Of a stretch of 64,000 nt of DNA, positions 19,071 to 61,316 are shown piece by piece; positions within the stretch are counted from its first letter, which is position 1, and every line of letters starts with the position of its first letter. The position numbers and the translations under genes are program-made. Source of the stretch: an uncultured Dehalococcoidia bacterium (GTDB lineage: Bacteria > Chloroflexota > Dehalococcoidia > Lucifugimonadales > UBA1123). The stretch spans positions 21,497 to 85,496 of the forward strand of contig CAZXFX010000005.1 in the NCBI GenBank assembly GCA_964640295.1. The letters run 5' to 3'. A model generated the notes under the pieces. That model made no database searches, had not been told where the DNA came from, and saw only the letters and a program-made list of their open reading frames with translations.

Positions 19071-20501
19071 TCAGCAGAGCTGGTACTCGCGGCTTGACGC
19101 TATCATCTTGAATAGCGACAGTATGAGTTCCTGGGACGCTTCTCTGTCCGGCTCCGCCTCAATGCCGCGAGCCGCGAACTCGACCAGCATGGCGAGCGTG
19201 TCTTCCGCGACCTCCATGGGACCGATGACGTCCAGGCAGGCGGACACCAACTCTTCAGGGTCAGACGAGTCGCTCGCGTCGCCTACGCGGGCGACCATGC
19301 TTTTCACGCCCGGCTTGCTCGCGTCGCCCACCCGTTGCGCCACGAAGTTGACTCTGTCCACCAGCGAGCCGCTCGTGATCCACTCCTCGCCCGTGTGCCA
19401 TCCTTCGACCGAAGGCGGGTCGAGCAGCTTTTGGCCCATGAACCCCGCCTCTTCCATTATCATGAAGACACCGTTGTCTCCGCCGTCGGGAACGGCATAT
19501 TCTCCCGTCTTCCTCAGCGCGCCGATTATCACCTCTGTCGGGCTCTTCACCCTGCGGAATCGCGCTTCCTTGAAGAAGTCGGAATTGAACAGAACCCTGA
19601 GTGTGGAGCGAATATCGTGGTCGTATTCGCGGTAGGCTTCCGCGAGCGTGTCTATCGCTTGCGGATCCAGCGGAGGCGTGTCCGACCACTGAGGAACGGG
19701 AACTTCGTCCGCCACGAAGAAGTTGTATAGATGCCTGGCCACGAATCGCGCGGTGGCCGTCTGTTCACAGATTATCCTGACGACGTCTTCCCCGTTGAAA
19801 TCGCCCTGTTCGCCCAGGAACGTCTTCTCTCCGTCATCGTGGTCGTAGTCGCGGTACTCGTGATGCCAAAGTATCCTGCCATAAGGCCAGATGGAGTCTT
19901 TCTGAGCCATCATCGCCATGTATTCGCCATTCTTGACAGTCCAGCCCGTGAACGCGCGGGAGGCGCTCTTGATGTCGTCCTCGCCGTAATTGCCGACGCC
20001 CATGGAGAAGAGTTCGAGTATCTCGCGCCCGTAGTTTTCGTTTATGGAATCTTTGTGATTCGTGTGATTGTCCAGCCAGATTATCATGGCGGGGTCTTTG
20101 GACAGTTCGACCAGCAGATTGTCGAAGCGGCCCAAACCGTGCCTTCTGAATGTCTCTATCTGATTGGTGAGAGAGCCGAGGTTGTTGAGCTTGCCTTCGC
20201 CCGTGGCGAAGACGCCGTGCCAGAAGAGAGCTATCTTCTCTTCGAGAGGATTTTGCGTGGAAAGCAGCCTGTACGCCCAGTACGCCGCGTTGTGTCCCTG
20301 CATCGCGTGGAGGTCGGCGTGTCGCCTGAAGATGAGGTCGTCCGGGATGTGGCGCGAGTCGTCGGGGCTGAGAAATCGCTCCACAAGAGCCTCGTAGCCG
20401 ATATCCTCGTAGCCGTCCAGCTCTTCCGGCGTCGCTCCGAAACCCGCTCGCCTGGCGAGGTGCGCTATCAGATTTCTTTCGTGGGAACCCATCTCTTCCA
20501 T
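19071..20501 (-). CDS. DUF1800 family protein
   Basis: Conserved LIAHLARRAGFGATPEEL N-terminus and the FNSDFF / PPSVEGWHTGEEWI C-terminal motifs. Start placed at the ATG cluster 20501/20492. The ORF-track start 20603 would overlap the DUF502 gene. Confidence 0.85.
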   Translation of the reverse strand: MEEMGSHERNLIAHLARRAGFGATPEELDGYEDIGYEALVERFLSPDDSRHIPDDLIFRRHADLHAMQGHNAAYWAYRLLSTQNPLEEKIALFWHGVFATGEGKLNNLGSLTNQIETFRRHGLGRFDNLLVELSKDPAMIIWLDNHTNHKDSINENYGREILELFSMGVGNYGEDDIKSASRAFTGWTVKNGEYMAMMAQKDSIWPYGRILWHHEYRDYDHDDGEKTFLGEQGDFNGEDVVRIICEQTATARFVARHLYNFFVADEVPVPQWSDTPPLDPQAIDTLAEAYREYDHDIRSTLRVLFNSDFFKEARFRRVKSPTEVIIGALRKTGEYAVPDGGDNGVFMIMEEAGFMGQKLLDPPSVEGWHTGEEWITSGSLVDRVNFVAQRVGDASKPGVKSMVARVGDASDSSDPEELVSACLDVIGPMEVAEDTLAMLVEFAARGIEAEPDREASQELILSLFKMIASSREYQLC

Positions 20502-23508: not shown

Positions 23509-24906
23509 CTACGCGAACTGGTATTCGCGGGTCGCCACTATCAGTTGAAGTATCTCAGACACTCGCTGGGCGGATTCCGCTTCGTTAGCTTCATCCCAAA
23601 CCAGGTCTCCTTTGAGCGAAGCGTGTCCCACCAGTTCCGACAGTGTTTCGTCGGTGACTTCCACTCCCCCCAATCGCTCCAGGCACTCGCTCACCACCGA
23701 TTCCGGCGACGCGCATTTGGCTCTCACCCCGTCCACGATGCTCCGCACGCCGGGCCGTTCGACGTCGCTCATCATGTCCGATACGAAGTTGGCCCGCTTC
23801 ATCAGAGAGCCGCTGTTTATCCATTCGACGCCCGAATGCCAGCCCTCGACGCTGGGCGGGTTCAGCAGTTCCTGTCCCATGAAGGTTATCTGGTTCGCCC
23901 ACTCGAACACGTCTGGGCCCGCCAGTTCCACTCCGCCCGCCATTCTGACCGTTCCGACCACGACTTCCGTGGGGTTCTTTATCTTGGCGAAGCGCGCCTC
24001 TTTGAAGAAATCCGAATTGAACAGTACCCTGAGCGCGTGGCTGATGTCGAAGCCGGACTCTGCCAGCGCGCCGGCGATGGTCTCCACTGCTTCAGGGTCT
24101 CGCGGAGGCGTTACCGACCACGCCGGCACCTGCACCTCGTCCGCCACGAAGATGTTGTAATGGTGGCGAGCGTTTAAACGCGCTGTGGCGGGCTGCGCCA
24201 GCACAATGTCAATTATCTGCTCGCCGTCGAACTCTCCCTTATATCCAAGGAACGTCTTCTCGCCGTAATCGTGGTCGTCGTCTCGGAACTCGAAATGCCA
24301 GTCCCACCTGCCCATGTGGAAGCGCGGCAGCTTGGGAGTCATAGTCCAGCCGGTGAAAGCCCGCGAACACTCATACACGTCTTCCTCCGTGTAATTGCCG
24401 ACGCCCATCGTGAAAAGTTCCAGCAGTTCGCGCCCCCAGTTCTCATTGACGGCGGTCGCGTGATTTTCGTGGTTGTCCAGCCAGAACAGCATCGCCGGAT
24501 TTCTGGACACTTCCAGCAGCAGCTCTCGATACTTGCCCAGTCCCTTCTCGCGGAACAGGTCTATCATGTCCGTAATCTCGTCGTAGTGGTCAACCTTCGA
24601 GACGCCCGTAGCGAAAAGCTGATGCCAGAACAGGCACATCTTCTCTTGAAGCGGCGCGTTGGTGTTCACCATTCTCCAGACCCAGCCGGTCTGTCCGCGC
24701 CCGCCCGCCGTTCCCGGCTTCCACTGGAAGTGGTAGTATCTCAGGAACTCGTAGATGTCCACCGGTTCCTGTTCGTCGGGTCGCAGAAGCTCTTCCACAG
24801 TAGCTTCGTACCCATTGGAAAGCCGCTCATCCAACTCTTCGCGGGTCGCGCCGAATCCAGCTCTCCGCATCAGATGCGCCATTAGCGCAAGGTCGTCGTT
24901 TGCCAT
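23509..24906 (-). CDS. DUF1800 family protein
   Basis: 465 aa with LMAHLMRRAGFGATREEL, NHENHATAVNENWGRELLELFTMG and PPSVEGWHSGVEWI. Confidence 0.88.
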   Translation of the reverse strand: MANDDLALMAHLMRRAGFGATREELDERLSNGYEATVEELLRPDEQEPVDIYEFLRYYHFQWKPGTAGGRGQTGWVWRMVNTNAPLQEKMCLFWHQLFATGVSKVDHYDEITDMIDLFREKGLGKYRELLLEVSRNPAMLFWLDNHENHATAVNENWGRELLELFTMGVGNYTEEDVYECSRAFTGWTMTPKLPRFHMGRWDWHFEFRDDDHDYGEKTFLGYKGEFDGEQIIDIVLAQPATARLNARHHYNIFVADEVQVPAWSVTPPRDPEAVETIAGALAESGFDISHALRVLFNSDFFKEARFAKIKNPTEVVVGTVRMAGGVELAGPDVFEWANQITFMGQELLNPPSVEGWHSGVEWINSGSLMKRANFVSDMMSDVERPGVRSIVDGVRAKCASPESVVSECLERLGGVEVTDETLSELVGHASLKGDLVWDEANEAESAQRVSEILQLIVATREYQFA

Positions 24907-28272: not shown

Positions 28273-28294
28273 TACAGTTTCCACACTCACGAAC

Positions 28295-28404
28295 CTGTAA
28301 CGATTTAGTCGGTGGCCCACTTCGGGCAAAAGTCCCTTCCACCTTGATGGGGAAAGGCTAGGATGGGGGTGATCCAATCCTCCGACCAAACTGATACAGG
28401 CTCC
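28295..28404. mobile_element. 110-nt structured intergenic repeat, copy 2 (MITE-like)
   Basis: Same element as 13374-13483. Flanked by its own direct repeat tccacaYtcacg (28280-28291 and 28402-28413). Confidence 0.7.
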
Positions 28405-30653: not shown

Positions 30654-31411
30654 CTCTGGTACAAATTCGATACAGGCAGAAACTCATCCGCCGACTCGAC
30701 GCGCCTCTCCACCACTTCTCCCCTTTGGACATACAGCGTATAAACGCCCGCGTCCGGCGCCGCGGGCAGAACTTTATAGCCATTGTCAACGACCGCCAGT
30801 GCGCAGTCGTTGTCTATAGCTATGCCGACGCCCCCCTTCCTCTTCACCATGTCGTGAAAGCTCTGCCGCCTTGGGACGCCGTCCGTCTCCCCGTTGTAGT
30901 GCGGACATGCCAGTCCCCTGACCAACCCCATTCCGGTAACCGCGATATAGTCCCAGCCTTCAGGACGATAGAAGGACATCGAGTCGCTGTGTCCGCTGTC
31001 GAACCAGCATATCGCGCCCGCGCTCACGCCGCACAGTACCGCGCCGCGCGCGTGAGCGTCCCGCAGAAGCGCGTCAACGCCGAGCCTGCGCCAGCGACGC
31101 ATCATCTTCAGCGTGTTGCCGCCTCCTACGTAGATTATGTCTGCCCACACTATCTTTCGGGCGACTTCCGACGGCTCCGGATCCTTCCCCAGCAGATACA
31201 GAACGTCGGTATCGCATCCATAGGCGACGCGATAAGCGCCGTCGAACGACTCCCAATACTCAATCGAATCACTGCTAGCGGTCGGTATGAACAGCGCGTT
31301 CAACCTATCCGAGCCGGCTCGCTTGGGCGCCATCTCCATGATCGCCCTATCTATCGGCTCAGTAGCCAGGGCGCCCAGGTCTCCCCCTCCGATAGCCACA
31401 ATCTTTCCCAT
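30650..31411 (-). CDS. Peptidase S51 family (dipeptidase E / cyanophycinase-like)
   Basis: VAIGGGDL..., IYVGGGNTLKMM and GVSAGAICWF (nucleophile Ser context). 4-nt overlap with the downstream gene. Confidence 0.85.
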   Translation of the reverse strand: MGKIVAIGGGDLGALATEPIDRAIMEMAPKRAGSDRLNALFIPTASSDSIEYWESFDGAYRVAYGCDTDVLYLLGKDPEPSEVARKIVWADIIYVGGGNTLKMMRRWRRLGVDALLRDAHARGAVLCGVSAGAICWFDSGHSDSMSFYRPEGWDYIAVTGMGLVRGLACPHYNGETDGVPRRQSFHDMVKRKGGVGIAIDNDCALAVVDNGYKVLPAAPDAGVYTLYVQRGEVVERRVESADEFLPVSNLYQR

Positions 31412-31424
31412 CTGAAACCTCCGC

Positions 31425-32825
31425 TTATATCAGGTTAGCGGGATGTCGCGTGTGCCAGTCCGTCACGGACTGGTAGCGTCTTCCAATCGCCAAGCACACG
31501 TTCTCATCATACGCTCTCGACATGAACTGTATCCCTGTCGGCATGCCGTCTGCGTCGAAACCGCTCGGAACCGAAATGGACGGCAGCCCGCAGCCGTTGC
31601 CGACAGCCCCCATCACGTCGCCCGGGCCCCTAATCGTCCGCCTGAACTGTTCGTCAATCGGAGTGGCAGTCGTGAGCGACGTCGGCGCGGCTATGGCGTC
31701 ATAGCCAGACATGACCGCGTCAACCTCCCGCGCCATCAACCCGCGCAGCCGCAGCGCCTTTATATAGTCGCTGGCCAGAATCGCGGTTCTCGCGTATGGG
31801 CCATAGTGGTCTTCCGGCGCAGTCAAGCCCGCCGGGCCGCCTTCGGCGATGAAGTCCTCGAACGCGCTCGCCGACTCCACCATCAGAATCGTCCTCGTGA
31901 CCTGCGCGTAGGGCAGGTCTGGGAACTCCATCTCCTCCACGTCCACGAAATCGGCCAGCGCGCCAAGCGCCGCCTCGAAGTTGGTTTTCACTTCATCCTG
32001 CGCGCCCTCCGTCACGTCCTTGAGGACCCCTAGCTTGAATTTTCGACCGGGATCGTACTCGGCGTCGTACTCGAACGGCTGGGAGTAGGTCGTGGGGTCG
32101 TTCGGGTCTGGACCCGCTATTGCCTCGAGGACTATGCCGCAATCGTCAGCCGTCAGGCACAGCGGCCCAAGCTTGTCCAGCGTCCAGCACAGCGCCATCG
32201 CGCCATGTCGGCTGACTCGCCCATAAGTAGGCCGCAGACCCGAAAGGCCGCAGTTGTTCGACGGCGACAGTATGGACCCCCACGTTTCCGAGCCTATTGC
32301 AAATGGAACGAGCCCAGCGGCGACCGCCGCGCCCGACCCGCTTGACGACCCGCCCGTCCAGCGCTCCCTGTTCCATGGATTCCGAGGCGGTCCCGTAAAC
32401 GACGCGTTCGGCTGGTTGTATCCCATCCCGCCCGCAAGCTCGATCATGGCGAGCTTGGCTGCCAGAGGCGCGCCCGCGCTTTCCAGTCTGCTTATCACGG
32501 TCGCGTCTCGGTCGAATTTCTGCTCGCTGAACGGCGCGGCTCCCCATGACGTCGGTATGCCGCCTGACGTGGCGAGCAGATCCTTCGCTCCCCAGGGTAT
32601 GCCCGCCAGCGCGCCGAGCTCGCGACCGGCGGCAATATCCGATTCGATTCGACGCGCCGTTTCCAGCGCGCGCTCTGACGTGAGAGTCACCAGCGCGTTG
32701 TGCGAAGGACCGAACTCGCCCAGGCGAGCCAGGCACGTTTCAGTTAGCTCAACCGGCGATACTGAGCCGTCTCGTATCAGCCTCGCCAACTCTCTAACAG
32801 GCGTGAATACCAGTTGATCAGCCAT
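31425..32825 (-). CDS. Amidase-signature family amidase (GatA/AtzE-like)
   Basis: GGSSSGSGAAVAAG signature. Start set at ATG 32825 (MADQLVFTPVRELARLIRDG), which overlaps the stop of the upstream small ORF (ATGGCTGA). Confidence 0.9.
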   Translation of the reverse strand: MADQLVFTPVRELARLIRDGSVSPVELTETCLARLGEFGPSHNALVTLTSERALETARRIESDIAAGRELGALAGIPWGAKDLLATSGGIPTSWGAAPFSEQKFDRDATVISRLESAGAPLAAKLAMIELAGGMGYNQPNASFTGPPRNPWNRERWTGGSSSGSGAAVAAGLVPFAIGSETWGSILSPSNNCGLSGLRPTYGRVSRHGAMALCWTLDKLGPLCLTADDCGIVLEAIAGPDPNDPTTYSQPFEYDAEYDPGRKFKLGVLKDVTEGAQDEVKTNFEAALGALADFVDVEEMEFPDLPYAQVTRTILMVESASAFEDFIAEGGPAGLTAPEDHYGPYARTAILASDYIKALRLRGLMAREVDAVMSGYDAIAAPTSLTTATPIDEQFRRTIRGPGDVMGAVGNGCGLPSISVPSGFDADGMPTGIQFMSRAYDENVCLAIGRRYQSVTDWHTRHPANLI

Positions 32826-33036
32826 TGTCGTCGCTCCTATAAGGCTTGAAGATGGAAAAGGGCTCGACATCATTCGTCAATCGTATGTTTCGCATTGGCT
32901 TGAAGAGTTCGGACAGCCCGATCACCGTATTCCGCGCCTCAGCCAACTGCTCGTCGTTCAGCAGATGTCCGTACTTCTCCTTGACCACCGCGTACATAAG
33001 GTCCTGCTCCAGCGACTTTCTGGTCGTGTCGTCCAT
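32818..33036 (-). CDS. Small GatC/AtzG-like (DUF4089-like) protein translationally coupled to the amidase
   Basis: 72 aa from ATG 33036 (GGGAGGAAG RBS). Size, helical character and position immediately upstream of an amidase-signature enzyme match the AtzG/GatC arrangement. The sequence-level assignment is unverified. Confidence 0.5.
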   Translation of the reverse strand: MDDTTRKSLEQDLMYAVVKEKYGHLLNDEQLAEARNTVIGLSELFKPMRNIRLTNDVEPFSIFKPYRSDDNG

Positions 33037-33173
33037 AAAATTCTTCCTCCCGATTATCAATCAGAAACCCAAGCGCCTATATATTATCATGCCAGTTTAG
33101 TGTATTTTGTTATCATGCCCCTATTGGCCACAATGGTTCTGCGGGCGTTGAGCGGTTCAGCAACAGGAGGAAG

Positions 33174-33437
33174 ATGATGGGCAAGTATTCTCCGTTAAAA
33201 GAACGTTTGATCAGCGACGAACGGAAGGGAAAGATCGAAGTTCCTATGTCTTTCGGCGAAATAGAAGCGATTATAGATGACGAATTACCCATCTCGGCAT
33301 ACAGCTACAGGCCCTGGTGGACTAACTCCAGGAACACAGAGATATCCGGCGCAAAGAACGGGTGGATAGCGGCCAACTGGCAAGTAAAATCTGTTGATCT
33401 GACACAGAAAACGGTCGTTTTTCGCCGAGCGACTTAA
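33174..33437 (+). CDS. Small conserved hypothetical protein
   Basis: 87 aa with an AGGAGG RBS. The pattern MSFGEIEAIIDDELPISAYSYRPWWTN...GWIAANWQVKSVDL..KTVVFRR recalls a widespread small domain of unknown function. Confidence 0.6.
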   Translation: MMGKYSPLKERLISDERKGKIEVPMSFGEIEAIIDDELPISAYSYRPWWTNSRNTEISGAKNGWIAANWQVKSVDLTQKTVVFRRAT

Positions 33438-33467
33438 TTCTGACGCTAAAATAGTTGATATACTGCA

Positions 33468-34316
33468 ATGACGCGTTTAGCGGGCATATTCGGATATCCA
33501 ATCCGACACTCTATCTCTCCCGCCATGCACAACGCCGCGTTCGAGCGCGCCGGCATTGACGCGGTGTACGAGCCTTGGGAGACGCGACCTGGCGATCTTG
33601 CCGACGGCGTGGCTTCTCTTAGAAGCGAACGCTATCTGGGCGCCAACGTAACTGTGCCGCACAAGCAGGCTGTAATGCCGCATCTTGACCACATTGACGA
33701 CCTGGCGACTAGAATCGGCGCCGTAAACACCATCTCCAACCAAAATGGCCTACTTACAGGCTCCAACACTGACGCGCTCGGGTTCATCGAGTCGCTGCGA
33801 GTCGAGGCCGGAGCGACCGTTACAGGCTTCAATATCGCGCTTATAGGCGCGGGCGGGGCGGCGCGCGCCGCCGCATACGCGCTTGCGGACGCGGGCGTGG
33901 GCGCGCTCGCGATTGCCAACCGCACGGTCGAACGCGCCGAGTCTCTCGCAGACGAGATACGCGGGACAGGAACCGGCGCGTCTGCGTATAGCGTTGCGGA
34001 CAGCGATTTTCGCGCATTCTGCGAGCGCGCCGACCTGATAGTCAACTCCACGTCGGTCGGCATGCTGCACGGCCCCGCGGAAGGCGAGTCTCCGATTCCC
34101 GCGGATGTCATCTCCCCCGGCTGCATAGTCTATGACATGGTATATAACCCTCCATTGACGCCGCTTCTCATGGACGCAGAGAAAGTGGGCGCGCGAATCG
34201 TCGGCGGTCTGCCCATGCTGGTTTACCAAGGAGCCGCCGCCTGGTCTCTCTGGACGGGACGGGACGCGCCGGTCGAAGTGATGTTCACCGCGGCCCAGGA
34301 AGCGCTCGGATTGTAA
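33468..34316 (+). CDS. aroE: Shikimate dehydrogenase
   Basis: GIFGYPIRHSISPAMHNAAF, NVTVPHK, NTD and GAGGAARA motifs. Confidence 0.92.
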   Translation: MTRLAGIFGYPIRHSISPAMHNAAFERAGIDAVYEPWETRPGDLADGVASLRSERYLGANVTVPHKQAVMPHLDHIDDLATRIGAVNTISNQNGLLTGSNTDALGFIESLRVEAGATVTGFNIALIGAGGAARAAAYALADAGVGALAIANRTVERAESLADEIRGTGTGASAYSVADSDFRAFCERADLIVNSTSVGMLHGPAEGESPIPADVISPGCIVYDMVYNPPLTPLLMDAEKVGARIVGGLPMLVYQGAAAWSLWTGRDAPVEVMFTAAQEALGL

Positions 34317-34405
34317 TAGCGACTCAGTGAACTCGATAACGCTAGACGCCTCCTTGCGCTGTTTCTAAAATTTATTCAAGAAACAGTCAAAAAGAGGCGC
34401 TCCCC

Positions 34406-35206
34406 ATGAAATACAGTTCAGCCCCCAATGTCTATCTGGTCAGCAGACCGTCCGTTGACTGGGATCAGATCGCCGCGTTCCTATCCGACGAGGACCTGCC
34501 GCCCATTCCGAGCAGCATACGCGCGGGCGCGGACGACGCCAACGCGATCATCGAGACATCTGCCAGGCTGTGCTACATGAGCTTTGGACGTGGTCGAAGC
34601 GACATCGAAGACTTCATCTACAACCTTCTCGGCATGAAAGACGGCTCGGTATTCGAACACGTAAACTACGGATTTGTCGTTACCGGCGTCTCGCGCAGCC
34701 TGACGCACGAACTTGTGCGACACAGGGCCGGGTTCGCTTACAGCCAGCGCTCGCAGAGATACGTTGACGAGACTGAGGGGTCATTTGTCATGCCGCCCGC
34801 GCTGGTCATGGAAAACGGCGCGGCGGACGACGCCCGCGCGGTCTTCGAAAACGCGCTTGAGTCCGCCGCCGACAGCTACGTAAAACTCGTCGAAGAGCTG
34901 GAGGAGGTTCTTCCCAAAGAGCGATTCCCGCGCAACACGGACAGACGCAAGGCAATAAGGCAGGCCGCCCGTTCCGTTCTGCCGAACGCCACCGAAACCA
35001 AGATATTCGTGACCGGCAATGTTCGCGCCTGGCGACACTTCATCGAGATGCGCGCCGCGCCTTTCGCCGACTGGGAAATTCGCTCGCTCGCCCTGCGGAT
35101 TCTCGAACTGCTGCGGAAAGAGGCGCCCCTGATGTTCGGCGACTTCGAGGTGTCGGACCTGACCGATGGCACACAGGTCGCCAAGCCGCGATACTCAAAG
35201 GTCTGA
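34406..35206 (+). CDS. thyX: FAD-dependent thymidylate synthase
   Basis: ThyX signature RHRAGFAYSQRSQRY. Confidence 0.92.
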   Translation: MKYSSAPNVYLVSRPSVDWDQIAAFLSDEDLPPIPSSIRAGADDANAIIETSARLCYMSFGRGRSDIEDFIYNLLGMKDGSVFEHVNYGFVVTGVSRSLTHELVRHRAGFAYSQRSQRYVDETEGSFVMPPALVMENGAADDARAVFENALESAADSYVKLVEELEEVLPKERFPRNTDRRKAIRQAARSVLPNATETKIFVTGNVRAWRHFIEMRAAPFADWEIRSLALRILELLRKEAPLMFGDFEVSDLTDGTQVAKPRYSKV

Positions 35207-35330
35207 ATTAGCCTGAATTAGCGCTCTTGCAGGATATGCTCTCAGGTATATTTACTCGCGCGTCGTCAATGCTACATCGCCAATGTCTGCGCGTTTTGCT
35301 GTGACCATATTGCAGCCAGAAGCGAGCGGG

Positions 35331-35606
35331 TTAGGCGTCGTATTCGACCAGGTGCGACTTTTCGGCGTCTTCCAGCGCCGCCTCTATCGCGCGCACCAAC
35401 TCACGCGCAGACTTCGCGGAAAGTTCCACAGGCACGCGGGCGTCCAGCCCCAGGCTCTCATTGACGAAATCTATGTTCAGCGTATGGTCGCCTTGCGAAT
35501 GAAATGGATGATCGTAGTAAACTCGCGCGCCGGTCAGCTTGAACCATCCCTTATGTCCTCGTCCGCTCCCATCTATCTCCGCGTGTTCGGTAACGTATGT
35601 GCACAT
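35331..35606 (-). CDS. Small conserved hypothetical protein (DUF6295-like by recollection)
   Basis: MCTYVTEHAEIDGSGRGHKGWFKLTGARVYYDHPFH...HTLNIDF. Start at the second ATG (35606) fits the GGAG RBS spacing. The overlapping plus-strand ORF 35283-35690 was rejected. Confidence 0.5.
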   Translation of the reverse strand: MCTYVTEHAEIDGSGRGHKGWFKLTGARVYYDHPFHSQGDHTLNIDFVNESLGLDARVPVELSAKSARELVRAIEAALEDAEKSHLVEYDA

Positions 35607-35676
35607 GGACATATCTCCGCGTATCTCGGCCCCGCGGGGCCAGCGTCTATTTCAGCGTTATCATGGGGGAAGCGTA

Positions 35677-36378
35677 CTATTCGCAGTTAGTGGTGTCAAC
35701 GAACCGCTCAGACGCAATTTTACTCGTCTTGAATCCGAATACATCCCCGAACTTTTTCACCAATATCGGAGCTACTTTAGCCACCGACGCATTCTGACCA
35801 ATCTCGAGGTTTAACGATGTTGCGCGGCTTTCTGGCATTCCGCACGGGACTATGTGATCGAAATACGACAGGTCAGGGGATACGTTTAGCGCAAAGCCAT
35901 GTGTGGTCGCGCGTCGACTCACTTTCACTCCGATGGCCGCTATCTTGCGGTCTTCCACCCACACTCCGGTTGGACGCCCTTCGCTCTCGGCGCAGACGCC
36001 GAACTCCGCCAGCGTCTCTATCAGCGTCCTCTCCAACGCGCGCACGTATTTCAGCGGCCCTCCGCCCCAGCGACGCAGATTGATGATCGGATATCCAACA
36101 AGCTGACCGGGTCCATGGTACGTGACCTCGCCGCCTCTGTCGGTGTGATGGACTTCGATTCCCAGCCTTTCGAGCGAGTCCGCGCCAAGCAGTATGTCCG
36201 CTTCCTGTCCGCGACGCCCAAGCGTATAGACGTGAGGATGCTCCAATAGAAGCAGCGTATCCGGACTGTCGCCTTCCGCAACCTCTCCGTGAATGCGCGA
36301 CTGAATATCCCGCGCCTCTCCGTATGGGACGAGTCCAAGCCATGTCGCGACAATTTGATTCTTAATGTCTGTCGCCAT
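35677..36378 (-). CDS. lipB: Lipoyl(octanoyl) transferase
   Basis: LLLLEHPHVYTLGRRG, TDRGGEVTYHGPGQLVGYPI and KIAAIGVKV motifs. Confidence 0.92.
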   Translation of the reverse strand: MATDIKNQIVATWLGLVPYGEARDIQSRIHGEVAEGDSPDTLLLLEHPHVYTLGRRGQEADILLGADSLERLGIEVHHTDRGGEVTYHGPGQLVGYPIINLRRWGGGPLKYVRALERTLIETLAEFGVCAESEGRPTGVWVEDRKIAAIGVKVSRRATTHGFALNVSPDLSYFDHIVPCGMPESRATSLNLEIGQNASVAKVAPILVKKFGDVFGFKTSKIASERFVDTTNCE

Positions 36379-36457
36379 CTGTGATAGGCTTTTGTAGAGT
36401 CAAATACAGCATGAATCCAAATTCGCAATTCTGAATTCACCATTCCAAATCACGCGC

Positions 36458-36600
36458 AATATCAGAGAAGCGGTCGGCGACAAAGTTGATCTGCTGATAG
36501 GCACGCACGACCAGATGACTACGTCCAGCGCCATACGACTCGCCAAGCGGCTCAAACCGCAGGACCCGCTCTGGTTTGAAGAACCCGTGCCGCCCTATTC
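36458..36600 (+). pseudogene. Remnant of an enolase-superfamily (mandelate racemase/muconate lactonizing enzyme type) gene
   Basis: No start codon. The in-frame translation NIREAVGDKVDLLIGTHDQMTTSSAIRLAKRLKPQDPLWFEEPVPP parallels VRDAVGPNVEILVEVHAKFSVYTAIHLGQRLEKYRPFWFEEPTSQ of the intact paralog at 54111-55250. Both the N- and C-terminal parts are missing. Confidence 0.6.
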
Positions 36601-36662
36601 ACTGTTTCCGCCAATCATATGTTGGGTATATCGTCCTAAGTTCTCGCAGCCACAGTTCCTGA

Positions 36663-36905
36663 TTAGCGAACCGCTGGAGAAACCCTGAGTGGTGTACGTC
36701 CTGAGAACGGCTTATCTGGCTCTCGACCTCTCTCGGCGCACACGGCTAGATAGTCGTCTATGGAAAACCGAAACTCTTCCTGAAGCTGTTCGACAGACGT
36801 TCCCTCAAAGACTATTACGTCCTTGGTATGTACCACCTCGCCATGAAACACACCCGCGTCCGAATCGAAAGTCACTGAGGCCCAATAGCCCTTATATTCT
36901 ATCAT
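36663..36905 (-). CDS. hicB: HicB-family antitoxin, apparently lacking the C-terminal DNA-binding domain
   Basis: MIEYKGYWASVTFDSDAGVFHGEV...DDYLAVCAERGREPDKPFSG is the HicB N-domain. The ORF stops at ...RVSPAVR, where homologs continue into an RHH domain. Confidence 0.8.
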   Translation of the reverse strand: MIEYKGYWASVTFDSDAGVFHGEVVHTKDVIVFEGTSVEQLQEEFRFSIDDYLAVCAERGREPDKPFSGRTPLRVSPAVR

Positions 36906-37156
36906 GGTTCTATCCCCGTCTTTCGCAAGAATTTTCTCAGGGATTCTACTGCGCCTTTTCTGGTCTCTCTTTCAGGATGTGGTCTATGAAAGTGAGCTCC
37001 AACATCGTTCAATTCTATATACACCCTGGCTCCCGTCCTTTCTTCAATGTACGCTCCGCAGGCCAATAGCATTGATTCAATTTCGTCCCATCGAAGACCT
37101 GCTTGTGTGGGTCTCCGGAAGATCGCTTCCAATGTCCTGCGATGCTTTCTTCTCAT
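36902..37156 (-). CDS. hicA: HicA-family mRNA interferase toxin
   Basis: 84 aa with KHRRTLEAIFRRP...LRWDEIESMLLACGAYIEERTGARV...HFHRPHP. 4-nt overlap with hicB. Confidence 0.85.
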   Translation of the reverse strand: MRRKHRRTLEAIFRRPTQAGLRWDEIESMLLACGAYIEERTGARVYIELNDVGAHFHRPHPERETRKGAVESLRKFLRKTGIEP

Positions 37157-37220
37157 AAGTGGACTATATCATATAATTGCGTCACACTAAGAACTAAAAA
37201 CTAACGACTAAAAACTGAAC

Positions 37221-38216
37221 ATGACCAAATTCCTTACATTCGGAGAAACCCTCGTACAGCGCAACGCCGACTACATCGGTCCCTACGACCCGGACGGCCC
37301 CTACACCTGGCACGTCGCGGGCGCGGAGTCTAATGTCGCCCTCGACCTGCGAAGGCTGACGCCGGACATAGAGGCCATCTGGGTGAGCCGGCTCGGTCGG
37401 GACGAGGACGGCGACATGATACTCGGCCAATTGCGAGACAGGATAACCGTCCGCGCCGCCCAGTTCGACGATGAGCGAACTGGTATCCAGCTACTCAATC
37501 ATCTGGGCGGCGGCGAGGTTCTGCGCCGATACAGGCGAGCGGGAAGCGCGGCAAGCCGTCTGACCGCCGCCGAAGTCCTGCCCCATCTGGACGGCAGCGA
37601 CCTCGTTCATGTTACAGGCATAACGCCTGCGCTGAGCGACATCTGTCGCCGGACGGTCATGGATGTAATGCAAGCCGCCGCCGAACGCCGAATCCCCGTC
37701 AGCATGGATGTCAACTACCGCGACGCTCTCTGGACGCCGCTAGAAGCGAGGGCGGTCTGCGACGAGATGCGCCAATTCGCTACCTTGTTCAAGGTAGGCC
37801 ACGACGAGGCCGAAACCATTTGGGGGCGTGGTTATTCGGCGGAAGAATACGCGCAATACTTCTTCAGCGGCAATACGCGCCTCACGCTAATTACCACCGG
37901 CGATAGCGGCGCGGTCGCCTGCGATGGCGATCAGGTCGTTGCCCATCCCGGATTCACAGTAGAAATGGTGGACCCCGTTGGAGCGGGCGACGCATTCGTA
38001 GCCGGGTTCCTGGCAGGCATATTCCAGCGATGCGAGTTGCCTGCGCTTCTCGATATGGGCACGGACGCCCGCGCCGACATACTCTACCACGCTCTTGCGA
38101 TAGCCAACGCCTGCGGCGCGCTCGTCTGCACCCAACATGGCGACACCGAACCCATGCCGGATATGCGCCAGGCGGAGGAGTTCATCGCGCGCAATAGAAC
38201 GAAAGCGGATGACTAA
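37221..38216 (+). CDS. PfkB-family sugar kinase (2-dehydro-3-deoxygluconokinase-like)
   Basis: 331 aa with the C-terminal DPVGAGDAFVAGF motif and overall PfkB layout. The last 65+ nt are duplicated at 38951-39015. Confidence 0.88.
   Translation: MTKFLTFGETLVQRNADYIGPYDPDGPYTWHVAGAESNVALDLRRLTPDIEAIWVSRLGRDEDGDMILGQLRDRITVRAAQFDDERTGIQLLNHLGGGEVLRRYRRAGSAASRLTAAEVLPHLDGSDLVHVTGITPALSDICRRTVMDVMQAAAERRIPVSMDVNYRDALWTPLEARAVCDEMRQFATLFKVGHDEAETIWGRGYSAEEYAQYFFSGNTRLTLITTGDSGAVACDGDQVVAHPGFTVEMVDPVGAGDAFVAGFLAGIFQRCELPALLDMGTDARADILYHALAIANACGALVCTQHGDTEPMPDMRQAEEFIARNRTKADD
38127..38191. repeat. 65-nt direct repeat, copy A (inside the kinase 3' end)
   Basis: Identical at all 65 positions to 38951-39015: tgcacccaacatggcgacaccgaacccatgccggatatgcgccaggcggaggagttcatcgcgcg. 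Confidence 0.95.
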
Positions 38217-38288
38217 GGAAAATTATATTCCAAAATAAAATACCGTTCTACTCTCGGAAGCGGTACTTTAGGTTGCACTTTCAGCATA

Positions 38289-38564
38289 CTAATTGCTGAG
38301 TGCGAAGAATTCCTCTACTTGTCTTTCGGGAACGTTTTCCGAGCGCATAGCGATCAATGCTTGGCACGCTGTCTCTATTCCACGTTCCAAATCGTATGTC
38401 CAAATCCCTACGTCGTCGGCGTTGCTTCTAACAATAAAAAATCTGCGCCGTCCAGATTGGTCAATCGTTATTGAAACAAAGTCGCTACCATCCCTGACCA
38501 ATATATTGCCCTCTTTGGTTTGCTCAACGGTGAACTGTTCTCCTGAGTACTCATATGTCCGCAT
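38289..38564 (-). CDS. Hypothetical small protein (cassette ORF B)
   Basis: 91 aa, ATG preceded by AAGGAAGGAGAA. No recognisable motif. More AT-rich than its surroundings. Confidence 0.55.
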   Translation of the reverse strand: MRTYEYSGEQFTVEQTKEGNILVRDGSDFVSITIDQSGRRRFFIVRSNADDVGIWTYDLERGIETACQALIAMRSENVPERQVEEFFALSN

Positions 38565-38799
38565 TGTTTTCTCCTTCCTTCTGCCGTCTTGGGAATATCG
38601 TGTTAGAAATCAGGGTTATTGGAAATTGGACACGCTGTCCGCTAGCATCGCGAAACCAGTATTGCATTGTGGGCATAAATCCGTCTTCGACACCTACAAT
38701 TAGTTCAGTGACCGAGTCGGAAACAATTTGAGGGTTACGACCTGTCAATTCCATGACCAACTCTTCAGGACGATTCCATGCATTCAGGATTTCTTCCAA
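38551..38799 (-). CDS. Hypothetical small protein (cassette ORF A)
   Basis: 82 aa from TTG 38799 (AAGAGG upstream), or shorter from ATG 38754. Its 3' end contains the RBS and start of ORF B (14-nt overlap). No recognisable motif. Confidence 0.4.
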   Translation of the reverse strand: MEEILNAWNRPEELVMELTGRNPQIVSDSVTELIVGVEDGFMPTMQYWFRDASGQRVQFPITLISNTIFPRRQKEGENNADI

Positions 38800-38950
38800 T
38801 GTGCCCTTAGCCTCTTTTCTTCCCTAGCTGCGCGGTTGCTGATACCGCCATTGGCCCTTTGGGCGGGCAGTCGAAGTTCAGAATCATTCTCGTTACATTC
38901 TACAAACTATCCATACAGTCTAGTCAGCCCTTGGCTAATTGGTCAACCAT

Positions 38951-39034
38951 TGCACCCAACATGGCGACACCGAACCCATGCCGGATATGCGCCAGGCGGA
39001 GGAGTTCATCGCGCGTTCACAGAACCGCAGTTGA
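38951..39034 (+). pseudogene. Orphan 3' end of the PfkB kinase gene (65-nt repeat copy B plus its own tail and stop)
   Basis: Reads (C)TQHGDTEPMPDMRQAEEFIARSQNRS-stop in the kinase frame. Sits 30 nt from the convergent glnS stop, as expected for the ancestral gene end. Confidence 0.8.
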
Positions 39035-39063
39035 ACCACGCGGCTGAATAGAAGCGGACCGTT

Positions 39064-40755
39064 TTACCGCCCTCCCTGACGCTGTATCCGCGCCCACGTG
39101 TCTCTCAGAGACACCGCCCTGTTGAACACGGGCGTGTCCGTCGTCGAATCCCTGTCCTTGGCAAAGTATCCGATGCGCTCGAACTGGTACGTCTCGCCGA
39201 CATTCGCCTCGGATAGCGATGGCTCTGTCTTGCATCCTGTCAGGACACTCAGCGAGTCCGGATTGATGAACTCCGTCCATTCCCTGCCGTCCGGCGCATC
39301 GTTCGGGTTCGGAATGGTGAACAGGTTGTCATACAGCCTCACCTCCGCGTCCACAGCGTGTTCGGCGGACACCCAGTGCAGAGTGGCGCGCACTCGCCTG
39401 CCGTCCGGCGCGGAGCCGCCGCGCGTCTCCGGGTCATACGCGCATCGAAGCTCGATCACATTGCCGTCTGCGTCCTTGACGGCTTCCTCGCACTTGATGA
39501 AGTACCCGTATCTGAGCCGAACTTCGCGGCCCGGCGCTAGACGATAGAACCTGCGCGGCGGGTCTTCCATGAAATCGTCCCGCTCTATGTACATCTCCCG
39601 CGTAAACGGAACGCGCCGCGTTCCCGCGCTTTCGTCTTCCGGGTTATTTATAGCGTCCAGATAGTCCGTCTCGCCCTCAGGAAAGTTCTCTATGACGACT
39701 TTCAGCGGATTCAGAACCGCCATGCGCCGCTCCGCGCGCCTGTTCAGATCGTTGCGCAGATTGTGTTCCAGCAGCGCCATCTCGGTTAGCGATTCCGTTT
39801 TGTTTATGCCCACTTCCGCGCAGAAGTCACGCAGCGCTTCAGGCGTATATCCACGCCGTCTCATCCCTGCCAGCGTCGGCATACGCGGATCGTCCCAGCC
39901 GTCAACATAGCCGTCCTCCACCAGCCTTATAAGACGCCGTTTGCTCAGGACTGTATGTGAGATATTGAATCGTGCGAACTCTATCTGCTGGGGACGGTAC
40001 AGCCCAAGTTCTTCGAGGAACCAGTCGTACAGCGGACGATGGTCCTCGTACTCCATACTGCACAGCGAGTGCGTAATACCCTCTATCGAATCCGAAATCG
40101 GGTGCGCGTAGTCATACATCGGGTAGATATGCCACTTGTCTCCGGTCTGATGGTGCGGAACATTGCGTATCCGATAGATGGTCGGGTCGCGCATATTCAT
40201 GTTGGGCGAAGCCATATCTATCTTTGCGCGCAGCACGTGGGCGCCGTCCTCGAATTCGCCGTCCCGCATTCGGCGCAGCAGATCCAGATTCTCTTGCGCC
40301 GACCTCTCTCTATACGGGCTGTTCCTACCCGGTTCGGTAAGAGCGCCCCTGTACTCGCGTATCTCCTCCGCGCTCAGACTGTCAACATACGCCTTGCCGT
40401 CCATCACAAGTTGTTCGGCGAGTTCGTACAGCCGCTCGAAGTAGCCGGAGGCGAAGAACTCGCGGTCACCCCATTCGAAACCCAGCCACCTCGTATCTTC
40501 TTTTTGCGACTCGACGTACTCCATCTCTTCGGCGAGAGGGTTCGTGTCGTCGAATCGGAAGTTGCACAGCCCCTCGAAATCCGCAGCTATCCCAAAGTTG
40601 AGGCAGATAGCGGTAGCGTGTCCCAGATGCAGATACCCGTTCGGCTCCGGCGGCCAGCGAGTGTGCACCCTGCCGCCAAACCTGCCAGTTTCGTTGTCTT
40701 CGACGATACGCGCCCTTATGAAGTCCTTTGACGCGAGCGTGGATTTGTCCGACAT
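39064..40755 (-). CDS. glnS: Glutamine--tRNA ligase
   Basis: [28 protein letters not shown]...[10 protein letters not shown]...[17 protein letters not shown] is near-collinear with canonical bacterial GlnRS. Confidence 0.95.
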
Positions 40756-51539: not shown

Positions 51540-53639
51540 CTATCTGCCAACGGGCACGATATCCTCAGGGTTGTTCCAAGTAGAGAACAACGCGGGATCC
51601 ATAGGCCACTCCGAGATTTTCTTCGGGTTGTATGCGATGGGAGACGGAACTCCAACCACGCCGAAGCTGACAGCGTGATCGAACAAGTACTGCGCCAAGG
51701 CGTTGTTCATCTCGATTTGCTTCGCCGGGTCAGGCTCGCCCGCGACTGCCAGCCAGGTGTCCGCCGCTTGCTTTATCTCCAGACCGCAACCGAAGCCGCC
51801 GCGCGTCAGCGAAGTGTGGTCCTGGGACTTCGGCCATTCCCAAGGCCATGTGCTCTTGCCGTCGTCGCAAGCGGTTATCCACGGCAATGTCGTAGCGCGA
51901 GCCACGATTGTGGGGCGATACACCGAGTATGCATACTTCTGAACTGCGGTTACTGCGCCAATCTCGTCCCAGAATCCTGAAACTGCGTCAGCAATATCTA
52001 CGAAGGCGCCATTGCTGTCGGTGTACAGAGGTATATCGAATCGCTTGCCATTCCTCTCAGGGTATCCAGCCTGGTCAAGAAGACGGCCAGCCTCGTCCGG
52101 ATCGTATGGATACTCCCATGCAGAGTTCCAGTTCGGGTTGTTTGGATTGAACTGGTTGAGGTAGATTGGCTGACCCAATCCGTTCAGAATCACTTCATTG
52201 ATCAAGTCGCGGTCAATCGCTCTCGCCAGAGCGTTTCGAACCAGGACGCCTTCCTCAAAGTCGGAACATCCATCCGGGCACTTTCCGCCATCATCTGGGC
52301 TGGGATTTCCAATCCATGGCAGGTCTCTCATATAGACTGCGGCGGTATCCAGCGAGTCGCCGGTTACTACGTGGTTGCTTTCCCACAGGTTGCCAGAGAA
52401 TACGACAGAGGCATGATTCGCAAGCCCTGTGTCAGCAGTCTTGAAACCACCTTCCAACATGCGCGGCAAATGCCTGAGCTGAATCGGAGCGGCGTCAATT
52501 TCGCCCGTCTCCATCAGCGCGATCTGCGTGTTCTGCTCACCCACTTCTCTGAAGACTATCCTGTCCACCTTCGAGTTGGCGTTCCAGTGGTCATAAGGGA
52601 CGGCTTCCAGGATCGCGGTATCATCCTGAACCCATTCCAGTATGTGCAGCGGGCCGGTGCCAATGAAGTTGGTGTCCTGCATCTCGGTCTTGCCGACTTC
52701 CTCAAAGCGGTGCAGGCTCTGTACGCTGAACGCCTGCGCCGCGTCGTTCATCAGGTTCGCATTCCAGCGCGGGTCGTATAGCGGATCGCCATTCTGCGTC
52801 GTGTTGAACGTAAGGCTTACCGTTGTGTCATCAACGGCGAGAGCCTCGTTGCTGCCGAACATCGCCGCGAAATCCCCCGCCTGCCAGTGAATGCTGTTCG
52901 GGTTGACTGCGTTGTTGCCGTCGTTGATGGTGAACGCGATGTCGTGCGCCGTCATCGGCCCCCAGCTTCCGCCTTCGTGGCTGCGGTCGCCAAGACCCTC
53001 GCCGTGGAATATCACGTCGTCGCGAATCGTGAGCGTCGCGCCTTCAGGCTGACCCGCGTCGTTGAATCTTAGCTCCCAGGCGCTTGCCAACATGGGAGCG
53101 ACAACACCGGGCGCCACGAACTTCATCGTGACTTCACCAACGCCCCAGTAGTGCATGGAGTCCGTCAACTGAGTGGACCCTAGTCCAACTCCGGGAGGAA
53201 CATCTGTGATGGCGATATTGATGGTGCCTGCGTCACCCCTTGGATCCGGCGCCGGCACTGCCGACACTATTTCCACGACAGGAGTCGGTGTAACGACGAG
53301 CTCGACCTCTTTGACGACCTCAACCTCGACAACCTTCTCAACCTCGACCTCTCTCACGACTTCCTTCTCGACCACGACGGTCTCGCCAGGAACGTTGACC
53401 TCTCTCACGACTTCCTTCTCGACCACCACGGTCTCGCCAGGAACCGTGACCTCTTTCACGACTTCCTTCTCGACCACCACGGTCTCGCCAGGAACCTCGA
53501 CTTCTTTAATCACTTCCTGCGTTACAATCTTCTCTACTTCGATTATCTCCGGGTCGCTCTGACACGCAACCGCGAACGCCAATGCGAACACAGCTATGAT
53601 CGGTATCAGTATCCCCGCCTTTCTCAGTCTTCCAAACAT
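51540..53639 (-). CDS. ABC substrate-binding lipoprotein, family 5, with repetitive linker
   Basis: 699 aa with signal plus Cys (FALAFAVAC), then three tandem 16-aa units VPGETVVVEKEVV(K/R)EV, then a large SBP_bac_5-type body. Confidence 0.88.
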   Translation of the reverse strand: MFGRLRKAGILIPIIAVFALAFAVACQSDPEIIEVEKIVTQEVIKEVEVPGETVVVEKEVVKEVTVPGETVVVEKEVVREVNVPGETVVVEKEVVREVEVEKVVEVEVVKEVELVVTPTPVVEIVSAVPAPDPRGDAGTINIAITDVPPGVGLGSTQLTDSMHYWGVGEVTMKFVAPGVVAPMLASAWELRFNDAGQPEGATLTIRDDVIFHGEGLGDRSHEGGSWGPMTAHDIAFTINDGNNAVNPNSIHWQAGDFAAMFGSNEALAVDDTTVSLTFNTTQNGDPLYDPRWNANLMNDAAQAFSVQSLHRFEEVGKTEMQDTNFIGTGPLHILEWVQDDTAILEAVPYDHWNANSKVDRIVFREVGEQNTQIALMETGEIDAAPIQLRHLPRMLEGGFKTADTGLANHASVVFSGNLWESNHVVTGDSLDTAAVYMRDLPWIGNPSPDDGGKCPDGCSDFEEGVLVRNALARAIDRDLINEVILNGLGQPIYLNQFNPNNPNWNSAWEYPYDPDEAGRLLDQAGYPERNGKRFDIPLYTDSNGAFVDIADAVSGFWDEIGAVTAVQKYAYSVYRPTIVARATTLPWITACDDGKSTWPWEWPKSQDHTSLTRGGFGCGLEIKQAADTWLAVAGEPDPAKQIEMNNALAQYLFDHAVSFGVVGVPSPIAYNPKKISEWPMDPALFSTWNNPEDIVPVGR

Positions 53640-58916: not shown

Positions 58917-59960
58917 ATGGAACGCCCCATTATGAAACCGATAGGAACGCCCGTCCAGGAACTCGACACGCCCGCGCTCGTCGTTGACCTGGACATACTC
59001 GAAACCAACATCGCCGACTGCCACGCTCACTTCCAGCTCTCAGATACCAAGATCCGCCCCCACATCCAGGCGCACCTCTCGCCCGCCATAGCCCACATGC
59101 AGATCCACGCCCAGGGAACGATGGGCGGCATAGCCGTCTCCACGCTTGGCCAGGCCGAGATATTCGCCCAGCGCGGCTTCCACGACATTCTCATCACCAA
59201 CCTCGCCGTCACTGCCCCCAAGATAGCCCGGGTCGCCGCGCTCTCAAAGAGAACAAACCTCACAGTCTGCGCCGACGACCCCGGAAGCGCTCTCCTCCTT
59301 GCCCATGACGTCGCGCTGGCCCTCTCTACCGTATCCGTCATGGTCGTCGCGCGCGACCAGGACGAATCAATCGGCGTAACCCCGCAGAACGTCGCCGACA
59401 CGGTCTCCATGATAAAAAGCGCGGTCCCCCTCAGATTCGCCGGATTCATCTCTTCCAGCGCCAGCGTTCTGCTGGAGGCGGCTTCCAACTACCCGAACGA
59501 CGAAATCGAAACCGTTCTCGCGCTGCCTGAAGGCGAGGGAATGCCCGACTCCACGTCCGGAATAACCCAGATAGTTACCGGCTCATACGCGCTCATGGAC
59601 GCCGCCAACCAGTCCGCGCTGCCCGATATGCGGCCCGCCGCCAACATACTCGCCACCGTAATGACACACCAGGAAGAAGGACTCGTCTGGCTCGACGCCG
59701 GCCAGAAAGCCACCAGCATAGACACCGGCCTCCCCCTCGTGGACGGCATCCCGGGCGCCTCCGTCAGCCGCATGAGCGCCGAACACGGCGGCATGGTCCT
59801 CGACGAGGGCGCGACTTGGGACGTGGACATCGGTACCAAAGTGCGGCTCATTCCTCACAACATCGCCAACACCGTCAACGTTTACGACTTCATACACGCC
59901 GTCCGCGACGGCAAACTGGAAGCCGTCTGGGAAGTCGCCGCCCGAGGTCGCTACGACTAG
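58917..59960 (+). CDS. D-Ser dehydratase / D-Thr aldolase-like (alanine-racemase-fold) protein lacking the PLP lysine
   Basis: LDTPALVVDLDILETNI... then IRPHIQAHLSPAIA, where family members have RPHxKxHK. Both lysines are replaced (Q, L). Confidence 0.8.
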   Translation: MERPIMKPIGTPVQELDTPALVVDLDILETNIADCHAHFQLSDTKIRPHIQAHLSPAIAHMQIHAQGTMGGIAVSTLGQAEIFAQRGFHDILITNLAVTAPKIARVAALSKRTNLTVCADDPGSALLLAHDVALALSTVSVMVVARDQDESIGVTPQNVADTVSMIKSAVPLRFAGFISSSASVLLEAASNYPNDEIETVLALPEGEGMPDSTSGITQIVTGSYALMDAANQSALPDMRPAANILATVMTHQEEGLVWLDAGQKATSIDTGLPLVDGIPGASVSRMSAEHGGMVLDEGATWDVDIGTKVRLIPHNIANTVNVYDFIHAVRDGKLEAVWEVAARGRYD

Positions 59961-60013
59961 CGCGCGCCGACCTCTCCACACACCCTGATCCAGACATGCA
60001 AGAGGTGATTCAC

Positions 60014-61245: not shown

Positions 61246-61316
61246 CACTGACTACGATAGCCCATGCTAAAATATCCAGATAAAACTACCCAACAAAACC
61301 GATAGAGAGTCGCGCA

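Follow-up and report, generated by a model that had tools for sequence, protein, structure and literature searches.

A repeated kinase gene end around a two-gene cassette in an uncultured Dehalococcoidia bacterium: a probable 3'-end displacement scar

Results

We analysed a 64,000-nucleotide (nt) stretch of DNA, called the window below, from an uncultured Dehalococcoidia bacterium (Lucifugimonadales, UBA1123; assembly GCA_964640295.1, contig CAZXFX010000005.1, positions 21,497 to 85,496). At the locus under study, site 1, a PfkB-family sugar kinase gene and the glutaminyl-tRNA synthetase gene glnS converge, and a low-GC cassette of two small genes lies between them, bracketed by two copies of the kinase gene's own 3' end. 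The kinase, of 331 amino acids (aa), is encoded on the plus strand at 37221-38216 (Pfam PF00294, E=5.6e-37) and ends in EEFIARNRTKADD before its stop codon. Its final conserved codons (CTQHGDTEPMPDMRQAEEFIAR) make up repeat copy A (38127-38191, plus strand). A repeat search of the window found the same 65 nt again at 38951-39015 (copy B, plus strand), 824 nt further on and identical at 65 of 65 positions, which rules out a chance origin of the repeat.

The two copies run into different gene ends. Copy A continues into tail A (38192-38216, plus strand), which encodes NRTKADD and a stop, the kinase thus reading ...IARNRTKADD*. This tail can be aligned with the kinase tails of two cassette-bearing relatives, L015 and L017, is unlike the tail that follows copy B, and accompanies the cassette as its kinase end. 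Copy B, 65 nt of kinase 3' end left as an orphan, reads into tail B, SQNRS and a stop (39016-39034, with the stop codon at 39032-39034), from which 29 nt lead to the stop of glnS. Tail B and this spacer (39016-39063, plus strand) align with the empty sites of L023 and L025 and represent the native end of what we term the SQS-type empty allele. The gene glnS (39064-40755, minus strand; Pfam tRNA-synt_1c domains on the identical product) is the convergent right-hand core gene and adjoins the kinase site in all relatives compared. The 759 nt between the repeat copies (38192-38950) have a GC content of 44-47%, against about 60% in the flanks, and show 81-89% nucleotide homology to the relatives L015-L018. 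In the orientation of the cassette, which is that of the minus strand, they hold a promoter-like site, the genes o82 and o91 and then an A/T-rich tract. An earlier, sequence-only reading of the locus had described a perfect 65-nt duplication around a low-GC insert with two open reading frames (ORFs) after the kinase, and all of its statements on the sequence check out.

Both cassette genes lie on the minus strand and encode orphan proteins. The first, o82 (38551-38799), encodes 82 aa from a TTG start, with an alternative ATG at 38754. The second, o91 (38289-38564), encodes 91 aa, overlaps o82 by 14 nt and has a strong ribosome-binding site (GAAGGAAGGAGAA) just upstream of its ATG. A consensus scan placed a putative sigma-70-like promoter, TTGACC-18-TAGACT, at 38917-38946 on the same strand. 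Its hexamers are kept in L015, L017 and L018, and the conserved edge of the cassette lies 3-4 nt upstream of the -35 box. At cluster level the only homologues of o91 were P0001 (91%) and P0002 (87%), and a phmmer search of 1.84 billion representatives with o82 returned only close homologues and one 70-aa protein at 42% identity. The ratio of nonsynonymous to synonymous divergence (dN/dS) was 0.04-0.07 for o91 and 0.15-0.20 for o82, and both genes are under purifying selection. Neither protein had a match in Pfam or PADLOC, and PHROGs gave only matches of unknown function at E>0.06. The AlphaFold2 model of o91 (pLDDT 70.5, pTM 0.62) has five strands and two helices, and Foldseek found no significant fold match for it in the PDB (best E=0.5); the model of o82 (pLDDT 52) was too poor for a fold search. 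With overlapping small genes in one operon layout, a promoter-like site upstream and a strong ribosome-binding site, the pair may be called toxin-antitoxin (TA)-like in layout, and beyond this gene arrangement no defining TA feature was found.

The o82/o91 cassette was also present in four other, diverged contigs (L015, L016, L017 and L018), always following the kinase on its glnS side. L015, L016 and L017 can be aligned with the window without a break through kinase, tail A and cassette, and for L015 and L016 the homology ends exactly at 38950, one base before copy B. In L015, L016 and L017 the cassette stands without a second copy of the kinase end. L018 has a different orphan, a 233-nt in-frame kinase 3' fragment (...GAGDAFVAG...EEFICTVG*) with its own tail ICTVG*, which starts 47 nt past the cassette edge. 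It sits in a 312-nt segment (reverse complement 466-777) flanked by the o82/o91 cassette on one side and a module of an 82-aa ORF and ankyrin repeats on the other. L015 has no such segment at this place, and orphaned ends can thus stack between modules.

The cassette and the repeat differ in age. Synonymous divergence (dS) between the lineages was 0.39-1.5 for the cassette compared with 0.8-1.2 for the kinase and glnS, indicating that the cassette has been beside the kinase since about the time the lineages split. A non-coding orphan of that age should hold many differences, yet the repeat has 0 in 65 nt. The duplication is therefore recent and is not a record of the arrival of the cassette. 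In the star-like clade, genomes with the cassette and empty ones are intermingled.

A kinase scan of species-representative genomes gave eleven Dehalococcoidia metagenome-assembled genomes, several of them complete chromosomes. The kinase-glnS interval is empty, with the two gene ends overlapping, in L004, L005, L006 and L014, and it holds 0.8-4.5 kb of unrelated cargo in L007-L013 (ankyrin-repeat genes, IS630-like ORFs, a TPR protein, a serine protease and others). Among 51 kinase homologues, the tails that follow the conserved ...MPDMxQVxEF(I/V) fall into at least ten different types. So many tails at one point identify the end of the constrained kinase sequence as a recurrent breakpoint.

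Tails like the orphaned SQNRS occur on the full-length kinases P0022 (...TRSQS), P0032 (...THSQSQV) and P0028 (...GRSSHQN). At the P0022 and P0032 loci (L023, L024 and L025) a complete kinase is followed by a spacer of 49-56 nt and then by glnS, and copy B with tail B and its spacer matches the kinase 3' end and spacer of these loci base for base. The proposal of the sequence-only reading that copy B is the ancestral gene end is borne out by this alignment. Empty sites, which that reading had suggested looking for in related genomes, were found in L004, L005, L006, L014, L023, L024 and L025, all belonging to other species of the clade. No conspecific empty allele was found: among 5.8 billion clusters there was no kinase ending in SQNRS, and the nearest other kinase was 85% identical.

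Further gene-end duplications were found in the window and in the relatives. The sequence-only reading had noticed the same architecture at a second site of the window; this recurrence was confirmed, with the start of the site corrected from 61056 and the whole placed at 61043-62099. The host gene of site 2 (60008-61114, plus strand) belongs to the Ala_racemase_N/D-ser_dehydrat family (Pfam PF01168, E=2e-22; PF14031) and ends in ...WPILARGCHH*. The first 74 nt of copy A, including the stop codon (61043-61116, plus strand), are 93% identical to 62017-62090. Just after the stop codon of this D-Ser-dehydratase-like gene, copy A is split by a 129-nt insertion (61117-61245, no strand assigned) resembling a miniature inverted-repeat transposable element (MITE), with 18-nt terminal inverted repeats (TIRs; 89%, CAGGGACTTTCGATTAT / ATAACCGAAAGACCCTG) and an 8-nt target duplication (CACTGACT). 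The TIR motif was found twice, against 0 occurrences expected by chance. The last 9 nt of copy A (ACGATAGCC, 61254-61262, plus strand) lie past the MITE and its target duplication, and CACTGACTACGATAGCC is found both at 61246-61262 and at 62083-62099.

Between the repeat copies of site 2 lies a cassette of 754 nt (61263-62016, plus strand). It encodes an 81-aa FitA-like ribbon-helix-helix antitoxin (61317-61562, plus strand; Pfam PF22513, E=3.5e-14) and, 10 nt further on, a 146-aa PIN-domain toxin of the VapC/FitB type (61573-62013, plus strand; Pfam PF01850, E=2.2e-12). The payload is a genuine FitA-like/PIN pair as predicted from these domains, and the insert holds no integrase-size ORF, only these two genes. 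Copy B (62017-62099, plus strand), delimited by repeat alignment, is an 83-nt orphaned host 3' end that includes the stop codon and 13 nt beyond it. Once the MITE is removed the repeat measures 83 nt and has five mismatches, all in its first 24 nt. A comparison of site 2 with metagenome contigs gave only relatives with at most 70% identity, and these have plain gene ends.

In L017, an enoyl-CoA hydratase gene on the minus strand has its 3' end repeated over 155 nt (14789-14943 vs 15754-15908, 97%). The two copies flank an insert of about 810 nt with a 76-aa DUF2283-like ORF, and a DUF2442 ORF reads into the distal copy. In L010, a copy of about 70 nt of that locus's own kinase end (8563-8636 vs 6900-6975, 86%) lies downstream of a 520-aa TPR gene. 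Including L018, there are four or five such cases in about 230 kb of the clade, with repeats of 65, about 70, 83, 155 and 233 nt; inspection of the repeat edges, by eye only, showed no motif shared by them. The orphaned kinase copies keep part of the gene body together with the old tip: copy B of site 1 with SQNRS*, the 233-nt fragment of L018 in frame with its own stop, and the L010 orphan likewise.

Read support came from Logan contigs (k=31), which derive from two projects and four runs and match the window at 100% identity. Among them, L019 (SRR22586461) spans 30663-38156 and ends exactly 30 nt into copy A of site 1, while L001-L003 (SRR22586457, SRR22586461 and SRR8304784) break off at 38986, exactly 30 nt inside copy B as counted from its right end. 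These are the positions at which k=31 unitigs must break if the first and the last 30-mer of the repeat each have two neighbours in the reads, so that the duplication is backed by raw-read k-mers and not by one assembly alone. Plain cassette alleles mixed with empty alleles would account for the right-hand branch only and leave the left-hand branch unexplained. The cassette's own proteins gave no record in the Logan index, and proteins identical to o91 (P0012) and to the kinase (P0015) were found on only one NCBI contig (88 kb), which is presumably the source of the window.

Some further observations concern the surroundings of the two sites. Ankyrin-repeat genes for 250-390 aa stand directly beside glnS in L007, L009, L015, L016 and L018, and L007 has IS630-like DDE ORFs at 7769-8838. 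Ankyrin genes are a hallmark of sponge symbionts, and their presence suggests a sponge habitat of the clade. On the side away from glnS, a lower-GC stretch between lipB and the kinase gene carries a hicA (36902-37156) and hicB (36663-36905) TA pair on the minus strand, recognised through Pfam. The hicAB pair is also found upstream of the kinase in L005 and L007, is partial in L004 and is absent from L006, L008, L009 and L014. The lipB-kinase interval of L017 and L023-L025 has an extra MR_MLE gene, accompanied in L023-L025 by a longer HicB. The hicAB interval is a second flexible spot. At site 2 the host gene is the second of two tandem Ala_racemase_N/D-ser_dehydrat paralogues (58917-59960 and 60008-61114), and the duplicated 3' end and the TA cassette are found only on this second one. 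A single match to the MITE TIR was seen in L015 (3453-3469).

Other repeats in the window were of different kinds. A repeat of about 113 nt (13371-13483 vs 28292-28404, 90%) has an internal hairpin (CCCTTCC...GGGGGAAGG) and unrelated flanks, and is a small dispersed repeat element. Coding-looking tandem repeats rich in CTC, GAC and TTC, with periods of 12/18 nt and 51 nt, occur at 13008-13144, 14621-14812 and 53299-53531, the 51-nt family being common to two loci about 38.6 kb apart. Blocks of 70-80% identity at 19642-20047 and 24074-24452, 4.4 kb apart, are probably paralogous genes. No Rfam family reached the gathering score anywhere in the 64-kb window.

Discussion

The structure of site 1 is best explained, in our view with a probability of roughly 0.6, as a 3'-end displacement scar at the flexible kinase-glnS hot spot, left when two alleles were joined once by homology and once illegitimately. 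The recent population of the organism would have included both versions of the locus, a cassette allele (kinase, tail A, o82/o91) and an empty allele (kinase, tail B, short spacer, glnS). The cassette allele would have supplied the left part of the present locus up to 38950, and an SQS-type empty allele the right part, from 65 nt before its tail onwards. This would take a homologous exchange where the alleles share sequence and an illegitimate joint between 38950 and 38951, where the promoter-side edge of the cassette would have been linked to a point 65 nt upstream of the position at which the kinase ends of the two alleles diverge.

Such a joint could have been made by either of two routes. 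A linear donor fragment may have had one end anchored by homology while its other end was joined illegitimately, as in homology-facilitated illegitimate recombination, or a circularised segment of the 65 nt, tail A and cassette may have entered by a single RecA-type crossover (Campbell type). In the product, the kinase would be intact and end in tail A, the cassette would follow, and a 65-nt orphan of the kinase with the former tail B would be left beside glnS. A dedicated recombinase would be unnecessary, and the repeat would be a by-product rather than a recognition site. Its right edge would mark where the alleles diverge, at the end of the constrained kinase sequence, and its left edge would be arbitrary. 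The perfect 65-nt repeat would also allow RecA-dependent recombination to remove the cassette precisely and so bring back the empty allele. In this account the anatomy of the locus, the types of allele in the relatives, the contrast in age and the varying repeat lengths are observed, and the route of recombination and the identity of the recipient allele are inferred.

Comparable scars have been described at rhs, vgrG and type VI secretion system (T6SS) effector genes. There, C-terminal displacement is attributed to homologous recombination paired with an illegitimate event, and orphaned 3' ends remain behind (PMC5361080; PMC8125069). Our comparison drew on Jackson et al. 2009, Kirchberger et al. 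2017 (PMC5361080) and Steele & Moran 2021 (PMC8125069), covering rhs/vgrG/T6SS effector-immunity and contact-dependent inhibition loci. As at those loci, an intact gene has a new 3' end and newly linked downstream genes, and the old 3' end now lies further downstream as an orphan, still with part of the conserved gene body, and so forms a direct repeat. Many alternative tips meet at one breakpoint in both settings, orphans can stack (as in L018), and the proposed cause is integrase-free. Unlike the rhs and T6SS cases, the host is here a housekeeping sugar kinase (or a D-Ser-dehydratase-like enzyme, or an enoyl-CoA hydratase) and no polymorphic toxin, and the displaced tip comprises only 5-20 codons with no known function. 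The cargo, an orphan pair or a TA pair, is functionally unrelated to the host gene, and there is no obvious selection for diversification of the tip.

In natural transformation, homology-facilitated illegitimate recombination (de Vries & Wackernagel 2002; Prudhomme et al. 2002; Meier & Wackernagel 2003; all cited in PMC5361080) likewise combines one homologous anchor, in a conserved gene, with one illegitimate joint. It introduces foreign DNA beside the anchor and needs no enzymes of an element. Unlike in the typical case, recipient sequence is duplicated here, as would be expected if the joint fell upstream of the point of divergence or if a circle integrated by the Campbell route. The locus also resembles the recombination hot spots for accessory genes between core genes, a 'hotspot' concept reportedly set out by Oliveira and colleagues in 2017. 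The cargo of the kinase-glnS interval differs or is missing in nearly every relative, with turnover presumably by homologous recombination in the flanking core genes. Ordinary double-crossover replacement produces no duplication, whereas the orphaned gene end found here marks a rarer, imprecise event.

Several points weigh against the displacement scar. The parental alleles of the species were not recovered (nearest other kinase 85%), and a possible 3-4-nt T(C)TG overlap at the joint, suggested by L015 and L018, is the sole hint of microhomology. The orphan of L010 starts within 2-3 nt of the start of the repeat in the window, which an arbitrary left edge does not predict, and the right, promoter-side edge of the cassette is a breakpoint in three contexts, hinting at a discrete module end. 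In experiments, homology-facilitated illegitimate recombination reportedly usually deletes recipient DNA instead of duplicating it. Continued gene conversion, moreover, could keep an old repeat identical. The start of the L010 orphan, the recurrent cassette edge, the clustered mismatches of site 2 and the absence of the cassette proteins from the Logan index would fit a less passive mechanism without overturning the displacement scar.

Of the alternatives, an integrase-free mobile cassette that depends on homology survives best, although we consider it unlikely. The gene-end copy of 60-250 nt would then act as a 'homing arm' in sponge-associated Dehalococcoidia: a circle formed between the direct repeats would re-enter empty alleles in other cells through a RecA crossover, and cassettes would regularly spread by this route in these genomes. 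A perfect repeat of 65 nt is long enough for RecA-dependent recombination, and integration of a circle would yield exactly the structure seen. The recurrence of the architecture in the clade agrees with such a system, as does its cargo, which is typically small and addiction-like (FitA/PIN, the DUF2283-like ORF, the orphan pair). There is no sign of circles or of a polymorphic population, however, the exact cassette proteins are missing from the Logan index, and the cassette shows an old, site-bound co-divergence with the kinase. Since the first arm would still need an illegitimate joint, this explanation extends the displacement scar rather than opposing it. If it were true, the orphaned gene ends would be working equivalents of att sites in a homology-guided cassette system and not passive scars.

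Integrative elements that use the 3' ends of genes and tRNA genes are well known, together with integrase-less derivatives such as cis-mobilizable elements (CIMEs), satellites and tycheposon-type cargo arrays. The sequence-only reading had taken the cassette for an att-like, site-specifically integrated mini-element and had suggested a search for a tyrosine or serine recombinase acting in trans. Under such a model the cassette would carry an attP resembling the end of the kinase gene, and the recombinase, encoded elsewhere, would integrate and excise it. Direct repeats of a target 3' end that rebuild the gene are indeed the classic attL/attR footprint, and empty sites in relatives and arrays separated by partial gene ends are further shared features, although the attB-like empty site is equally expected from a displacement scar. 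The cassette was seen only at the kinase 3' end, on five contigs, its right edge is a sharp and recurrent breakpoint, and the L010 orphan begins at nearly the same position of the kinase.

We nevertheless regard site-specific integration as quite improbable. The insert has no integrase-size ORF on either strand (at most 91 aa in the orientation of the cassette, the longest mechanical ORF being 136 aa antisense), and a crude regular-expression search of the 64-kb window found no tyrosine-recombinase signature. L015, L016 and L017 carry the cassette without an attR-like copy, and the L018 orphan has 233 nt and begins 47 nt beyond the cassette edge, compared with 65 nt abutting the edge in the window. 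The repeats of other sites differ in length (83 and 155 nt), without a conserved att core or a common motif to the eye; likewise, no attC-like or dif-like motif was noticed by eye at the cassette ends, for which no formal search was made. The dS of the cassette equals that of the core genes and so gives no sign of recent movement between lineages, and no copy of the cassette was found in the plasmid, phage and viral contig collections. The carriers without a repeat, the long orphan of L018, the missing integrase and the old cassette together count against the att-like element.

An old duplication that has been homogenised by gene conversion also seems a doubtful explanation. The orphan would date from the original insertion in an ancestor of the clade and would have been lost in other lineages. 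The cassette is as old as the lineage split, L018 and L010 also hold orphans of the same gene, and mismatches confined to the first 24 of 83 nt at site 2 are what partial conversion would give. This would, however, need independent losses in L015, L016 and L017, and the orphans differ in extent (65 vs 233 nt) and in context. Tail B and its spacer, moreover, are well preserved and can be aligned with the functional alleles of L023 and L025, and conversion against the kinase cannot maintain them.

It is most improbable that the assembler stitched coexisting cassette and empty alleles of different strains together in tandem, even though the contig is metagenome-assembled, the clade holds both types of allele, and the runs with Logan records of the flanks gave none for the cassette proteins. 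The break of L019 at 38156 requires a second, non-kinase predecessor of the first 30-mer of the repeat in the raw reads of SRR22586461, and the glnS-side unitigs are unbranched from glnS into copy B in three runs. The same architecture is found in independent assemblies (L010, L017 and L018) and a second time within the window. On the unitig break points 38156 and 38986, an assembly artefact was largely rejected.

Simpler origins of the repeat were dismissed: a tandem duplication of the segment, because the tails after copies A and B differ and the cassette is single; a constraint from overlapping convergent genes, as in relatives of the L004 type, because there is no overlap in the allele type of the window (L023, L025) and copy B lies outside glnS; and a transposon-type target-site duplication, because 65-233 nt is too long and too variable and the mismatches of site 2 are clustered at one end. 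The 8-nt target duplication at site 2 is genuine and belongs to the MITE. A 25-nt match of 76% between 36449-36473 and tail A was taken as chance.

Conclusions

The kinase-glnS locus most likely adds an example, in an unusual setting, to a type of recombination scar that has been described before and that recurs in this clade. Displacement would extend the footprint of C-terminal displacement from polymorphic-toxin loci to ordinary housekeeping genes, and would explain why a conserved enzyme has more than ten different C-terminal tails. For annotation, it means that perfect repeats of a gene end are not automatically att sites, and that orphaned ends can be used to date and orient gene gain in uncultured genomes. 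The entry of small cassettes, TA pairs especially, into chromosomes without a transposase or integrase is poorly documented. With empty alleles, scar-free cassette alleles and cassette alleles followed by orphans of variable length, this one clade of Dehalococcoidia would provide a concrete natural example of imprecise, homology-driven gene gain.

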